Below, in pieces: positions 46,311 to 52,071 of a DNA stretch of 64,000 nucleotides. The first letter of the stretch is position 1, and each line of letters begins with the position of its first letter. The notes under the pieces were generated by a model. The model was given only the letters and a program-made list of their open reading frames with translations. It was not told the DNA's origin and did not search any database. The stretch covers positions 448,001-512,000 of the forward strand of contig CBDDCX010000006.1 of NCBI GenBank assembly GCA_965226375.1, in the 5' to 3' direction. Origin of the DNA: Longimicrobiales bacterium. Lineage in GTDB: Bacteria > Gemmatimonadota > Gemmatimonadetes > Longimicrobiales > Gaopeijiaceae. The translations under genes were made by a program, and so were the position numbers.

Positions 46311-47985
46311 CTACCCGCCCGTCAGAACAGAGACGATGTCCATCCTTGTCGCGGAGCGGGCCGGGCCATAGCTGGAGATCAGCCCCAACATCAGGAAAAC
46401 GACCGGAAGAATCACCAACGACCAGGGATGGATTCTGGAAACTCCGAAGAGGAGGTGGGCCCAGAATCCCGAAACGGCGTACGCCAAGGGCAGTCCCAGC
46501 AAGAAACCGTAGAGCATGAGCCCCAGGCCGTCTCGTAACACGAGGAGCCGAACGGCACCACTTCTGGCGCCCAACGCCAACCGGATCGCCATCTCTCTCT
46601 GGCGCCGGCACACCCAAGAATTGACGATTCCGTAGAGACCGACGCTGACCAGAAGAAGCGCGACCAGGGCGGAGATCACGACCAGCGAGAATCTGGTGCG
46701 CTCGTCCGACGTCGTGTTCGCCACGAGCTCTGCGAGCGTGGCGGCTTCAATGATCGGAGCATCGGGATCCACGGACCACACCTCGCGCCTCACCGCCGGC
46801 ATGAGTGACGCGGCTTCGACGTCGGTTCTCAGAACGACGTTCCTGTTCCAACGAGGACTGCGGGCAAAGGTCATATAAATCATGGGTGGGGTGACTTCGG
46901 ACAATGACTCGTGCTTCACGTCGCCCACCACCCCTATGACTCCAGCGGATCGGGTCGGCCCGGGCGAGTCAACGCCTTTCCCACGGCAACCTCACCAGGC
47001 CAGAGCGCATCGGCGAGCGTCCGGTTGACCAGTACGACGTTCCTCGAGTCCTCAACATCCCGGGAGTCGAACGCTCGACCGCGTATCAGGGGCATCCCGA
47101 CCACCTCCAGATAGCCGGGACTGACGAGCCAGACGACTCCCTTATGATCTGATGTGGGATCATCGGGCCTCCCGAACCGGTCCTCGATGGCTCGACCCGT
47201 CAGCGTGCTGTAATTCACAGAAGCGACGCCTTCCACCCCCGGCAGGTCCGCGAGACGTCGATAAATCTCCGCGTAGAAGGCCTGCGCCCCTTCGGGTGAT
47301 CCCGCGGGCCGAAGCCGAAAGGTCAGGACGTCGGTATCGATACCGGGGTCGACCCGTGTCAGCTGCCAAAGGCTCCGGGTCAGATGAGCGGCGGCGGTGA
47401 GCAATACGACCGACACGGCCACCTCGGCCACGACGAGAAGGCTCCTCGTCCGCGTCTGGCGTAGGCTCGCCGTCGAGTTCCGACCCCGCTCCGACACGCG
47501 GCGGTACGCGTCCCGCGTCGCATGGAGGGCGGGACCGGTCCCCATGAGCAGGGCGCTCACAACGCAGACGGCCAAGGAGAAACCCAACGCCCTCGCGTCC
47601 ATAACGACATCACCGGCGAAAGATCCGCTCCCTACGAACAGGATCCCCAACCGGTTCGTCAACATGAACGCGAGGCCCACGCCCAACACTCCGCCGACTC
47701 CCGCCAGAACAATGCTCTCGGTGAGAAGTTGCGTGATCAGGTCGCTCCGGCTCGCACCGAGAGACACGCGCACCCCGAACTCGCCCCGTCGATCGTCACC
47801 ACGACCCAGCATCAGGCCCGCCACGTTGGCGATGGCGATGGTCAGGACCAAGAGCGCGCTGGCAAGCGCGAACAGAAGCGTGCGCTTGACGTCGCGGGCC
47901 TGCCACTCGGAGTCCACAGATCGATGCCGTCCGGGCTCCGCCGGCGCGATGCCCGGATCGGGCGAAAGCCCGCCGGCATCACGCC
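46311..47985 (-). pseudogene. Degraded ADOP-type ABC permease
   Basis: 5' part missing. A GVMPAGF...IDLWTP remnant joins out of frame to LTIAIANVAGL, and a 1-nt frameshift at ~46940 breaks LEVIGVVGDVK. Confidence 0.8.
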
Positions 47986-48097
47986 GGAGTCAGTGCTCTG
48001 GTGCCCGCGCGAAGAGCCGCTGCGGCGGATCAAGTCGAAATTCTGCGAACGGACGAATGAGGCGGACTGGACGCGCCGGCACGCGGCTCGGATCGCG

Positions 48098-48574
48098 TCA
48101 GCCCGGCGTGCCTCCGGCTTCCTCGATCTCGGCAGTCCAGCCGATCTCAACGGCACCCTTCAGGCTCTGCGCCGTAGGGCACTTGTCCACATGTCGTGCG
48201 AGCGCCTTGTCCACGGTCTCACGAGTCCCTTCGGGAATCTGGATGGCATAGTGGACATTGATCGAGGTGAGGACGGGAACCCTGTCTCGCATCTCGTTGA
48301 TCCCCTCCGCACTGGAGCGGATGTGATCGCTCGGCAACTTGACCCCGCGCACCTCCAGTGCGCCTATGAGAGTCCCGAGTAGTCAGCCGGCTGCCGCGGC
48401 CACGAGATAATCCACGGGAAGAGGCAGGTTCGGTTCCGAATCGAGTCCATAGTGGGCTTTCACCGGACCGTGCACGCCGAAGTCGACTTGAGTGCCATCC
48501 TCCAGAAGGGCGCGCCGGTGGACTCCCGACAGCCTTCCAACCTCGGACCGCGCGATGTAGAACGGATCGCTCAT
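48098..48574 (-). CDS. OsmC/Ohr-like protein, probable selenoprotein (in-frame UGA, codon 64)
   Basis: ORFs 48383..48736 and 48098..48352 share a frame: PVDYLVAAAAG-UGA-LLGTL...KCPTAQSL; a hairpin follows the UGA. Confidence 0.78.
48330..48382 (-). promoter_or_regulatory. Candidate bacterial SECIS element
   Basis: mRNA GCGCAC-UGGAG-GUGCGC (48363-48347) with lower helices GACUCU/GGGGUC and CUCGG/CCGAG; the loop is 25 nt after the UGA. Confidence 0.65.
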
Positions 48575-48765
48575 TCCGCCACCTCCCCCTCTGGTTCCGT
48601 TGTCGCCACTTCGAAGCCCGGGCAATCGAGCACGGGTAGCGGCGGGTATTTGCGATAACGCGAGTCCTCGAATGATCGCTCGCAGAGATGAAAGATAGAC
48701 CCTCGCTTGTTCTCGACCACCCGGACGAAGGCGCATTTCTCACAAAGTCCCACGGGCCCGATCAA
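48571..48765 (-). CDS. Small Cys-rich hypothetical protein (putative metal-binding)
   Basis: 64 aa: GLCEKC...RGSIFHLC...KYPPLPVLDCPGFE; 4-bp overlaps with both neighbours. Confidence 0.7.
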   Translation of the reverse strand: MIGPVGLCEKCAFVRVVENKRGSIFHLCERSFEDSRYRKYPPLPVLDCPGFEVATTEPEGEVAE

Positions 48766-49499
48766 GGCCGAACTCCCAGCAGCGCCGACTGGCGCTCGGA
48801 TCGCCCGCCCCGGTGTGAGAACAATCGGGCCGTTCCGCAAACAGTGCATTGCTCCGAAACCGAGATGTGTCCCTGTTCGAGACCGAGTCCCAACGCCTGC
48901 GAGACCAGCACGGCGCGCACGTCAACAGGTGATGGACCGGGCGGCGGAGGCAGCTTCAATGCGTCGAACACCTCGGGGCCGACCTCATAGCAGTTTCTGC
49001 AGATGGCTGGTCCGAGATGCACCTCCAGATCGACGGCCTCCGAGCGAAAACGGGTGCGGAGTGTCCGGACCCCCTCCAAAAGGATGCCGCCCGCGATGCC
49101 TCTCCATCCGGCATGCAGCAGGGCCACGACACACCGTTGGGGATCAACCAGGTATACGGGCACGCAGTCCGCCACGGTAACCGCCAGCAGAACGCCCGAT
49201 GTGGACGTGGCGTGCCCATCCGCGGGATCACCCTGGATGTGTACCCCGGGGGCCAGCTCGTCGTGCACGGCCACCCGGGTCCCGTGCACCTGCCTGGCGT
49301 GGACTACCGCCCCGAATCCGCTGGCGTCCCGGAGCGTCCGCCAGCGCTCATCCGCCGCCGGGGAAGGGGTATCACCGAAGAGTCTCAGGTCGAACGGCTC
49401 GTCCGCGGGACCGGCATGGGTGATGCCGGCCAACAGCCAGGGGAAACGATCCAGCCACTCACCCACCGGATGAAACGGAACGACAGTGTCTGCGAGCAT
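48762..49499 (-). CDS. pgeF: PgeF/YfiH (laccase-domain purine nucleoside phosphorylase)
   Basis: ARQVHG, ADG, VADCVPV, HAGWRG, GPAICRNCYEVG, CT...FSHR. Confidence 0.9.
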   Translation of the reverse strand: MLADTVVPFHPVGEWLDRFPWLLAGITHAGPADEPFDLRLFGDTPSPAADERWRTLRDASGFGAVVHARQVHGTRVAVHDELAPGVHIQGDPADGHATSTSGVLLAVTVADCVPVYLVDPQRCVVALLHAGWRGIAGGILLEGVRTLRTRFRSEAVDLEVHLGPAICRNCYEVGPEVFDALKLPPPPGPSPVDVRAVLVSQALGLGLEQGHISVSEQCTVCGTARLFSHRGGRSERQSALLGVRP

Positions 49500-49542
49500 G
49501 TCGGGGATACTTCAGATCCCCGAAGCGATTATCAAGGCAACC

Positions 49543-52002
49543 CTATCTCACGCCGGTCACACGCAAACCCGCCACCACAGTCCTGGGGAGTCCAGGGTGG
49601 AGCCCGGCCGGGCGCCGCGCCACGCTGTACCGCTCGTCGGTGAGATTCTGGATACCGGCGAACAAGGTCCCCACCCCCTCGAGGTACAAGTCCCCTGCCA
49701 GATTGAACACCACGTACGCATCCGTCCCCTCACCTTCGGGAATGTCCTCCTGCCCCGCCCGTGTGCGCATGGCGCCCGACGCCACCGTAGAGAGCGTCAC
49801 GCTCCACCCCGGACGATCGTACCCGATGCTCCCGCTCATCTGGTGCCCCGGCAGGTAGGGAAGCCTGTCGCCGATCTCCACCTCACCCCAGGGGCCGTAA
49901 TCGGAGTCGAACGCGGACCGGAATTCGGCACGGGTACGTGTGTAGGTAATACGTACCGGCAGGCTAGTGTCCCAGTCGCGCCCCCAGGCGAAGTCGTAAT
50001 CGACAGACGCTTCGACACCCAACACAACGGCATCACCACCGTTGTACGCCTCCCCGGTGCCGTCCTCTGCGGTGGCGAGCGTGGCCCGTCCGAGGATGTT
50101 CGTGTAGTCGCTGTAGAACATGCTCGCCTGGGCGGCCAGACCGGAGTCCCGCCACCTACCTCCCAGCTCGTAGTTGACGCTACTCTCCGGTCGTGTGACC
50201 TCGTCGGCGCCAGGCCCCTGCGGTCCGAACCCCCTGTGAACACCCCAAAAGAGATTGAGCGCGGGAGCGGCTCGATAGGAGAACCCGACACCCGGGATCC
50301 AGGCGTCCACCCGGTTCTTCTGGACGCGGGTCGGCTCCGCGCGCGCCGGGTCGTCCTTGGCGTAGTCTGTACGAGTAAAGTCGATATGCTCGAATCGGAT
50401 GCCGGGTGATACCCTCAGGCGCCCGAGCTCGATCTCATCCTGTACGAAGAAGGCGAGCGCGTCGGCCGAGCTGACGCGATTGGACTGGCTCCCGGGCTCG
50501 CCGGGGGTCGTGAGGACCATACCCTCGTCCCGCATCTCGAAGGCGTCCTCCCATTGGAAGCGGTCCTCCTGGTCACGGTGGAACCGCACGCCCACCTCCA
50601 CCGCATGATCGCCGCGGCTGAGACCCAACGCTGACTGCACACCCTGCGCGAAGTAGTCACGGTTGTTCGCCCTGACCCGGAGTGCGTTGGGATCACTACC
50701 ATGGCCGCGCAGGACAGCCAACGCCGTCCCATGCTCGTCCGGAGCATCCAAGACTTCGCTGATACCCGTGCCGAGCACGCTCTGCAGCTTGTACCAGTTC
50801 CGTGAGAAGTCATTGCGATAGGCCGTGGTCGTCACGTCGACCGCCCCGTGAACCCAAAAGTGTCGGAGCTGAATCTGCGAATGCTCCGCCTTCATCAGGT
50901 CTGACTCGGAGGCTGGATATCGGTGCAGCGGATTCACGGCGAAGTCCGCGTCCGTGAGGCCGAGATAGGTTGATGCCGACTCTTCGTCGGTGTATCCGAG
51001 CTTGGGCTCCAGCTGCTGATACCAAGGACTGCTGCGATCGCTGTTGATCCGGACCTTGCCCATGAAATCGGCCACGTCGAAGCCGGTCGGGGCAGCGCTG
51101 GCCAACTCCTTGAAACCATCGGTCTCCAGCGAGTACGCCTCGATGAGCCAACCGAGGCGGGCCCCCGAATCGCCGATGCGCCCGTGGCCCCTCAACGTAC
51201 CGTTCTCACCCCCCGCCCCCTCCATGAACCACGTGAGCCGATCCGGGATCGACGACGAAACCAGATTGATCGCGCCGCCGATGGTTCGGGGACCATACCG
51301 GACCTGGCTCGATCCCTTACGGACCTCCACGGCCTCCATACGTCCCGCCACCGGAAAGTAGTAGGCGGACGGCGCTGTGTACGGTGCGGGAGCGATGAGC
51401 ACGCCGTCCTCCATGAGCGTGACCTTCGAGCTCCGGTCTACGCCGGTCCCTCTCAGGCCGATGTTGGGACGAAGTCCGAAACCGTCCTCGTCCTGCACGT
51501 TCACGCCCGGCACGAGCCGCAGGAAATCATGCACGTTGTCAAACACGAAGGCAGGAGATTCCAGGTCGGCTGCCACCAACACATGAGCCGCCCCCGGGAC
51601 CTCGTCGATGTCGAGGGGATCACCGATCATCCGTGTCCGTTCCATCAAGACCCTGATGGGATCGAGGCGGATCGGTCCAGCACCCATCTCGGCAACCAAT
51701 CGGAGTTCTCGGTCGTCGACCACCGTCACCGTCTTGGTAAGGGTGGAGTGCCCAAGGCGGACAAAGCGCAAGGATATGGTGCCTAGGGGTATCCCCCGCA
51801 GGGAGTAGCGCCCAGCATCATCGGAGAGGGTGCGAAGAGAGGTGCCCATCACCTCCACGGACCTTCCCGAAAGAGCCGAGCCGTCCTCGGTGGCCTGGAC
51901 GATTCCCGAAATCCTGCCGGGACCATCCTGCGCGTTCAGAGAAGATGAGAACAGTGAGGCCGCGACGATCAACTGCAGAGTCCTGCAAGTGGAGAAGCTC
52001 AT
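49543..52002 (-). CDS. TonB-dependent receptor (FecA-like iron-complex uptake)
   Basis: Signal peptide and N-terminal beta-sandwich; VPGVNVQDEDGFGLRPNIGLRG, EVRKGS...YGP...GGAINL, QNLTDERY. Confidence 0.9.
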   Translation of the reverse strand: MSFSTCRTLQLIVAASLFSSSLNAQDGPGRISGIVQATEDGSALSGRSVEVMGTSLRTLSDDAGRYSLRGIPLGTISLRFVRLGHSTLTKTVTVVDDRELRLVAEMGAGPIRLDPIRVLMERTRMIGDPLDIDEVPGAAHVLVAADLESPAFVFDNVHDFLRLVPGVNVQDEDGFGLRPNIGLRGTGVDRSSKVTLMEDGVLIAPAPYTAPSAYYFPVAGRMEAVEVRKGSSQVRYGPRTIGGAINLVSSSIPDRLTWFMEGAGGENGTLRGHGRIGDSGARLGWLIEAYSLETDGFKELASAAPTGFDVADFMGKVRINSDRSSPWYQQLEPKLGYTDEESASTYLGLTDADFAVNPLHRYPASESDLMKAEHSQIQLRHFWVHGAVDVTTTAYRNDFSRNWYKLQSVLGTGISEVLDAPDEHGTALAVLRGHGSDPNALRVRANNRDYFAQGVQSALGLSRGDHAVEVGVRFHRDQEDRFQWEDAFEMRDEGMVLTTPGEPGSQSNRVSSADALAFFVQDEIELGRLRVSPGIRFEHIDFTRTDYAKDDPARAEPTRVQKNRVDAWIPGVGFSYRAAPALNLFWGVHRGFGPQGPGADEVTRPESSVNYELGGRWRDSGLAAQASMFYSDYTNILGRATLATAEDGTGEAYNGGDAVVLGVEASVDYDFAWGRDWDTSLPVRITYTRTRAEFRSAFDSDYGPWGEVEIGDRLPYLPGHQMSGSIGYDRPGWSVTLSTVASGAMRTRAGQEDIPEGEGTDAYVVFNLAGDLYLEGVGTLFAGIQNLTDERYSVARRPAGLHPGLPRTVVAGLRVTGVR

Positions 52003-52071
52003 GCCCTGGCACCGTGCGTATCTATGTATAAACCCGGCGTTCGCACACATAGCGCGTATCGACGAGTGTTA

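Follow-up and report, generated by a model that had tools for sequence, protein, structure and literature searches.

A predicted OsmC-family selenoprotein gene with a SECIS-like hairpin in its reading frame in a Longimicrobiales genome

Does a TGA in the middle of an OsmC-family reading frame mark a damaged gene, or is it a codon for selenocysteine (Sec)? The question is raised by a 64,000-nucleotide stretch of a Longimicrobiales genome (positions 448,001 to 512,000 of contig CBDDCX010000006.1, assembly GCA_965226375.1; hereafter the window), in which two minus-strand open reading frames (ORFs) of one frame are parted only by TGA 48385-48383. An earlier interpretation of the letters alone (the sequence-only reading) had proposed a single hidden selenoprotein gene with a hairpin resembling a Sec insertion sequence (SECIS) just behind the UGA, and had added the caveat that a TGC>TGA nonsense change is possible in a window with many lesions. 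From comparative sequence evidence we conclude that minus-strand 48574..48098 is, almost certainly, one gene in which Sec would be inserted at UGA codon 64. We are nearly as confident in the overall interpretation of the locus as a single OsmC-family gene whose UGA64 encodes Sec, the predicted peroxide-attacking residue of a Sec64/Cys132 hydroperoxide reductase.

The complete gene, delimited by translation and a Pfam match, comprises 158 codons plus a stop at 48098..48574 of the minus strand, from an ATG at 48574-48572 to a terminal TGA at 48100-48098; a Shine-Dalgarno-like GGAGG, read directly from the sequence, lies 7 nt 5' of the ATG (48582..48586, minus strand). Translation table 11 splits it, in the ORF list of the window, into ORFs 48383..48736 and 48098..48352, and translation together with that list confirms that the two share a frame and are separated by the TGA. 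Translation through this codon yields the 158-aa protein of the sequence-only reading, with ...DYLVAAAAG-U64-LLGTL... and ...K-C132-PTAQSL...; the residues around the predicted Sec64 read ...AAAAG-U-LLGTLIGALEVR. The Pfam OsmC match (PF02566) spans the TGA, covering residues 51-145 with 52.7 bits against a cut-off of 27.5 bits (E 5.9e-14), and all 20 orthologues extracted from related genomes are collinear with the window gene and start at or near the same N-terminal residues. The in-frame UGA, codon 64 (48383..48385, minus strand), is predicted to encode Sec where the OsmC fold has its first, peroxidatic Cys, an assignment based on column conservation and on alignment with the Thermus OsmC structure 1ukk. 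The SECIS-like hairpin (48347..48363, minus strand), delimited by a consensus fold (alifold) and pair counts, lies within the coding sequence at codons 71-76 (G-A-L-E-V-R). The TGC codon of Cys132, the predicted resolving Cys in a K-C-P-T-A motif, is at 48179..48181 (minus strand) and is invariant in an alignment of 25 sequences.

Conservation of the UGA codon and co-occurrence with the selenocysteine machinery

The read-through protein was searched against 61 related genomes, and TGA was present in all 41 match rows with E <= 1.3e-17; one further row, free of TGA, is the C-terminal piece of a frameshifted copy, and distant OsmC genes lacking TGA account for the five weakest rows (E 1.5e-6 to 3.6e-4). 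The 20 extracted orthologues, 56-90% identical to the window protein, all have TGA in the same column, within AA(A/G)(G/A)-U-(L/M)LGTL. A sample of the phylum gave matches (E <= 1e-10) in 113 of 401 genomes, with TGA in 150 of 150 rows among the matches listed; these rows belong to two groups of paralogues, with 52-69% and 33-43% identity to the query. Scanning of contigs with a profile of the Cys form produced 46 genome loci and 74 metagenome loci. By their record labels, 24 of the 46 genome loci come from Gemmatimonadota-type or Longimicrobiales metagenome-assembled genomes (MAGs), 14 from 'Candidatus Eisenbacteria' MAGs and two from Acidobacteriota MAGs, while six have no taxon label. Of all fetched loci that cover column 64 (n=160), 156 have TGA there and four have TGC. 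Cys is aligned with the UGA both in these four TGC loci and in 24 full-length Cys-form clusters from a large protein collection (152-161 aa, 50-62% identical, all with Cys at column 64), so that the alternation of UGA and Cys named as a check by the sequence-only reading is indeed found.

The protein collection also records what annotation has made of this family. Among the matches listed, 95 of 120 are C-terminal halves of 89-96 aa, named 'OsmC family protein' or 'organic hydroperoxide reductase' and in several cases of Gemmatimonadota; gene callers therefore cut the family at the UGA codon, as had been predicted of pipelines.

These counts bear on the possibility that the TGA is a TGC>TGA nonsense mutation or a sequencing error in a dead OsmC gene. 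Such damage has local precedents, since at least one gene of the window is probably broken, an FtsX/MacB-type permease interrupted near 46932-46936, and one orthologue (G029, L042) is itself frameshifted. Against it stand the TGA in 156 of 160 loci, at 50-90% protein identity and with frames intact on both sides, the covariation of the hairpin and the way in which presence of the gene tracks that of selA (both described below), and the occurrence of the same TGA on contigs of three independent studies. These metagenome contigs (X3, X6 and X7) span 48335-49500 or more, show no difference from the window at 48383-48385 and differ from it at a few other positions; X3 may be the source of the window's own assembly. 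Because contigs of three runs, from three studies, carry the TGA unchanged, the UGA is not an assembly artefact, and because the copies diverge, a single contaminating sequence behind them is excluded. Conservation of TGA and hairpin, together with the contigs of the three studies, thus disposes of the nonsense caveat, and we regard the chance of a dead gene or an erroneous codon as negligible.

Some further observations concern the same region. The frameshifted orthologue (L042; G029:C49:10056-10506) keeps both the Sec TGA and the hairpin and is split near codon 116 by a frameshift or a second TGA; it is probably a broken copy or an assembly error. Over the hairpin region at 48332-48391, summed contig depth for X3, X6 and X7 rises to a three- to eight-fold peak (22.3-30.1, as compared to 3.3-7.5 in flat flanking bins). 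The long contigs of X6 and X7 end at 48335-48344, where several short contigs with a few differences pile up; this pile-up suggests that many related organisms in the samples share a nearly invariant stretch. From a metatranscriptome (X19) came one 171-nt contig (48295-48465) that matches the window letter for letter through the TGA and hairpin. Since DNA can be present in an RNA library and contigs say nothing of level, we do not count this contig as evidence of expression.

The genome of the window (8 contigs, 90% complete) encodes the Sec machinery that the sequence-only reading had proposed to look for. The genes selD (373 bits), selA (553 bits) and selB (332 bits) all score above their curated cut-offs, as does tRNA-Sec (69.5 bits), which ARAGORN reports as tRNA-SeC with anticodon tca and which lies on another contig; a tRNA scan of the window found none. 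The selD gene (L001; G000:C6:613956-614876) has an in-frame TGA of its own, in ...AHGAG-U-ASKLG..., which we take to be the N-terminal, glycine-rich motif that holds the catalytic Cys or Sec of SelD; selenophosphate synthetase is therefore likely itself a selenoprotein in this genome. Among the 61 related genomes, selA was found in 37: in 26 of the 28 with the TGA-bearing gene and in 11 of the 33 without it. Neither gene was found in the 12 genomes of family f2. We present this co-occurrence as a pattern and not as a statistic, because related genomes are not independent.

It may also be asked whether the UGA is read without a Sec system, through a code in which TGA specifies Trp or Gly or through leaky read-through, or whether the two halves are separate polypeptides. 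The codon that follows the TGA is ATG in 100 of 141 unique sequences, and it is at this ATG that gene callers start their 'OsmC family protein' of 89-96 aa. In the window gene, however, the codon directly after the UGA is CTA, which is no start codon, and the C-terminal half alone cannot fold as an OsmC domain because the helix formed by residues 53-75 spans the break. As for decoding without Sec, the final stop of the gene is itself TGA, the sole alternative residue at the column is Cys, never Trp or Gly, and the Sec machinery co-occurs with the gene. We rate these explanations, taken together, as very improbable, and continue with UGA64 as a predicted Sec codon.

The genome also encodes a paralogue (G000:C5:228384-228836; L194 485-943, plus strand) that shares 34% identity with the window protein and has TGA in the same column (AAAGG-U-LTGTL) and its second Cys in H-C-P-V-Y. 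It repeats the hairpin design, with CUGGAGG 24 nt after the TGA, and paralogues of this L194 group in the phylum sample likewise carry TGA.

A hairpin conserved within the coding sequence

Behind the UGA, the hairpin described by the sequence-only reading is present as drawn: GCGCAC (48363-48358) and GUGCGC (48352-48347) enclose UGGAG (48357-48353), the loop begins 25 nt after the UGA and the stem 19 nt after it, and a U.G pair can close the UGGAG loop. Of the 846 cells that the six core pairs make up in 141 unique 63-nt segments of Sec forms, 844 are paired; for the upper helix with its closing U.G, the figure is 98.6% of cells. Three pairs, numbered by alignment column, covary: 26-42 (GC 112, CG 15, GU 14), 30-38 (AU 97, GC 28, GU 15) and 29-39 (CG 137, GU 3, GC 1). 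Where GGC>GCC (Gly>Ala) has occurred on one arm of pair 26-42, the opposite arm has the synonymous change CGC>CGG in 15 of 15 cases, and in 28 cases GCA>GCG is offset by GUG>GCG. In 500 column shuffles, neither the observed covariation score nor the observed percentage paired was ever reached, and slid controls all fell far below the observed covariation score. The hairpin is thus conserved in homologues with compensatory changes, which was a further check that had been proposed.

The constraint is also seen in codon choice. Third-position entropy, computed over 137 unique coding sequences, stays at 0.00-0.94 bits at the four-fold codons among codons 69-76, as compared to 1.06-1.89 bits at the other 54 four-fold columns evaluated; synonymous variation is suppressed only at codons 69-76, under the hairpin. 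The 141 Sec-form segments have GGG 52, GGC 43, GGA 42 and GGT 4 at Gly67, GGC 118, GGT 7 and GGG 1 at Gly71, and CUC 98 and CUG 37 at Leu69. At the loop codon, Leu73, they have CUG 138, CUC 2 and UUG 1, whereas all four Cys forms have CUC, which removes the loop G, and one of the four has its stem broken twice. The CUC of the Cys forms fits a relaxation after change of Sec to Cys, as judged from four sequences of which three are apparently close. Two exceptions, L091 and L092, keep the TGA with UCGCC as the loop.

We judged the fit to the consensus bacterial SECIS (bSECIS) against the constraints as quoted in the Fig 2 legend of a selenoproteome review (PMC13188914), the portion of that source used here: an apical loop of 3-9 nt, an upper stem of 4-16 bp, a G within the first two loop positions, a UGA-to-loop spacing of 16-37 nt, an MFE (minimum free energy) of at most -7.5 kcal/mol and a loop of the form N1-G-[G|U]-N-N2. 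The window hairpin resembles this consensus in its 5-nt loop, its stem of 6-7 bp, the G in loop position 2 and the 25-nt spacing; U-G-G-A-G agrees with N1-G-[G|U]-N-N2 by way of the U.G pair, and the MFE is -11.3 kcal/mol, with 140 of 141 sequences at or below -7.5. It departs from the consensus in having no conserved lower helix. The 'further lower helices' of the sequence-only reading do appear when the single sequence is folded, but this part of the description fails on conservation: with 63.1% of cells paired across the 141 unique sequences, as compared to 98.6% for the upper helix, a lower helix was ruled out as a conserved part of the SECIS. No Rfam model picked up the hairpin in a scan of 47900-48900 (E <= 10); a viral-element match on the other strand, 16 bits against a cut-off of 80 bits, was dismissed as chance.

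Several results nonetheless count against Sec insertion as we propose it. The search for selA drew a blank in two of the 28 gene-bearing genomes, which are fragmentary assemblies, one of them 78% complete in 620 contigs and the other 88% complete in 830 contigs. The stem can still form in three of the four Cys forms, and the contrast between Sec and Cys forms therefore depends mainly on the loop base in four related sequences. Conservation of the stem could be explained in part by conservation of the peptide G-A-L-E-V-R that it encodes. The folding energy of the 81-nt region is ordinary (z = -0.16), with 80 of 200 shuffles folding equally well or better; energy is uninformative in DNA this rich in G+C, and it is from conservation and covariation, not from energy, that the hairpin draws its significance.

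Fold, proposed chemistry and relation to known OsmC proteins

A search of PDB by sequence, with the single sequence and with a profile, retrieved only Thermus OsmC 1ukk, and weakly (E 0.0014 and 0.00031), so that a comparison of folds was needed. An AF2 model of the read-through protein, built on the alignment of 25 sequences, has a mean pLDDT of 94.7 and a pTM of 0.86; in it, U64 sits within a long helix (53-75) and C132 at the point where helix 118-131 gives way to helix 133-138. The PDB matches listed by Foldseek for this model are OsmC, Ohr, YhfA or OsmC-like proteins, with probability 1.00 and 12-21% identity, the best being 2onf, 1ml8, 6eb4, 1qwi, 1vla, 1lql and 1ukk. In the alignment with 1ukk, U64 falls on the Cys of ...HAGCF... 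and C132 on the Cys of ...EGCPVS..., and the columns of residue 64 and of Cys132 are invariant in the 25-sequence alignment. The first Cys position in a helix and the second in a CP motif, as stated in the sequence-only reading, are thereby borne out.

In OsmC and Ohr proteins, attack on the hydroperoxide is made by the first Cys, which becomes a sulfenic acid and is then resolved by the second. By analogy, we propose the following sequence of events for the window gene. With the ribosome at the UGA, SelB-GTP carrying Sec-tRNA(Sec) would bind the hairpin loop, and Sec would be inserted. Positioned where the long central helix starts, U64 would act as a selenolate that reduces a hydroperoxide to the alcohol and in doing so becomes a selenenic acid; Cys132 of the CP motif would resolve this to a selenenylsulfide; and a dithiol donor, a lipoyl protein or thioredoxin, would recycle the enzyme as in OsmC and Ohr. 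Hydroperoxide reduction, suggested by family membership, is in our estimate somewhat the better bet as the actual chemistry. The low significance of the 1ukk sequence match tells against a peroxidase function, as does the result that no NCBIfam peroxiredoxin subfamily model was reached, with 23 bits as the best score.

The protein could instead be a real selenoprotein with other chemistry, namely selenol/thiol redox or transfer of sulfur or selenium, as is possible for the poorly characterised YhfA-like (COG1765-type) branch of the superfamily, and its partner might be a small protein with four Cys residues (4-Cys) encoded just upstream. The comparison with two-Cys OsmC/Ohr hydroperoxide reductases (1ukk, E. 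coli OsmC 1qwi, and the Ohr proteins of Chromobacterium and Xylella) cuts both ways. The window protein shares their fold (Foldseek TM 0.64-0.77, query-normalised) and keeps both catalytic Cys columns, yet it has a predicted Sec in place of the first Cys, is only 12-21% identical to them and misses all the curated OsmC, Ohr and SACOL1771 models (18.9-23 bits against cut-offs of 85.8-166). Other chemistry would be in keeping with those missed models, with the presence of the function-unassigned structures 2onf, 1ml8 and 2egt among the best structural matches, and with a conserved 4-Cys ORF that overlaps the start codon (ATGA) and has a homologue immediately upstream and in the same orientation at 36 of 143 evaluable loci, mostly abutting or overlapping the start codon. 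On the other hand, both peroxidase positions of the two-Cys OsmC/Ohr proteins are present and invariant, in the same helices; the top structural matches include Ohr and OsmC structures whose peroxidase function is known; and the 4-Cys neighbour is missing in 107 of the 143 loci. Other chemistry is accordingly a minority prospect in our estimate, if a serious one, and hydroperoxide reduction by Sec64 and Cys132 remains our preferred proposal.

OsmC-like selenoproteins are not new as a kind. They have been catalogued since 2005, when Zhang, Fomenko and Gladyshev (PMC1088965) included in their selenoproteome of the Sargasso Sea an 'OsmC-like protein' family of three sequences assigned to COG1765, with the motif UxxT. 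The family and its motif are carried on in two reviews (PMC9312934 and PMC13188914), with COG1765 given in one and PF02566 in the other. The Sargasso sequences in supplementary file 1 of PMC1088965 read GF-u-LLT and QGCFAE. Like these Sargasso sequences, the window protein has the PF02566 domain, a predicted Sec at the first-Cys position at the start of a long helix, a P-x-P...Y-(I/L)-V-A motif before the Sec, the second Cys near the C-terminus and an in-frame SECIS directly behind the UGA. By eye, it differs from those same sequences in reading U-L-L-G-T, that is UxxxT, where they have UxxT, in having its second Cys in K-C-P-T-A, as compared to Q-G-C-F-A, and in being about 20 aa longer at the N-terminus. 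The carriers of the window type also differ, being MAGs labelled Gemmatimonadota, Eisenbacteria and Acidobacteriota.

The NCBIfam model NF041052, 'OsmC-related (seleno)protein', is probably a model of the Sargasso OsmC-like family. Membership was rejected for the window protein, which scores 23 bits against the 95-bit cut-off. Paralogue L194 scores 15 bits. Indeed, a search of the whole genome of the window found no gene that reaches this cut-off; the best match, at 64.6 bits, is another gene without TGA. Because of the NF041052 score (23 against 95 bits) and the difference in both motifs, we treat the window protein as belonging to a new subfamily of a known kind, although the representative accession of the reviews, MCS5647933.1, may already fall within this branch. 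In the literature on selenocysteine and selenoproteins in Gemmatimonadetes, as far as the sources were accessible, nothing apparently relevant to this OsmC family was found, and 'Gemmatimonad' does not occur in PMC9312934 or PMC13188914.

Neighbouring genes and implications for the family

The 4-Cys ORF immediately upstream (48571-48849, minus strand; 92 aa as listed) ends in a TGA that overlaps the ATG of the selenoprotein gene. Its conserved core, from about residue 33, reads G-L-C-x-x-C ... R-G-S-x-F-x-L-C ... Y-P-x-L-P-V-x-x-C-x-G-(F/Y). Searches placed it in no Pfam or NCBIfam family, and Atlas gives only unnamed clusters. It is a possible redox partner of the selenoprotein; as an obligatory partner it was rejected as a general rule, on the count of adjacent loci given above. 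Farther upstream, also on the minus strand, are a Cu-oxidase_4 / YfiH-type protein (PF02578; 48762-49499) and a TonB-dependent receptor with a CarboxypepD_reg domain (49543-52050). Downstream, at 46311-47917 of the minus strand, adjacent FtsX and MacB_PCD ORFs are separated near 46932-46936 by TAG (46936-46934) and then a 2-nt frame offset before the GTG (46931) of the next ORF. The appearance of this pair suggests an ABC-type permease with a frameshift, or else an error of assembly, and agrees with the remark of the sequence-only reading that the window carries lesions.

For annotation, the finding corrects an error spread across public databases, in which halves of 89-96 aa stand for a real product that is a selenoprotein of about 155 aa. 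The 141 unique sequences form an unusually clean natural set of bacterial SECIS elements in a coding helix; with its compensatory changes and a loop base linked to Sec or Cys, the set is useful for training SECIS predictors. With this finding, the selenoproteome of Gemmatimonadota-type soil bacteria gains an OsmC subfamily dominated by Sec. No new kind of biology is involved, since the selenoprotein type has been listed since 2005. A more far-reaching picture, which we consider unlikely, is that this is a near-obligate Sec branch of OsmC (Sec in about 97% of the copies seen), with a SECIS design shared by an old pair of paralogues, in which the SECIS has frozen G-A-L-E-V-R in the catalytic helix and, within part of its lineage, the enzyme is paired with a translationally coupled, unclassified 4-Cys mini-protein as a dedicated selenol/thiol redox relay. 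Were this to hold, the near-obligate Sec branch and its 4-Cys relay would constitute a new two-component peroxide or redox defence in soil Gemmatimonadota and their neighbours.

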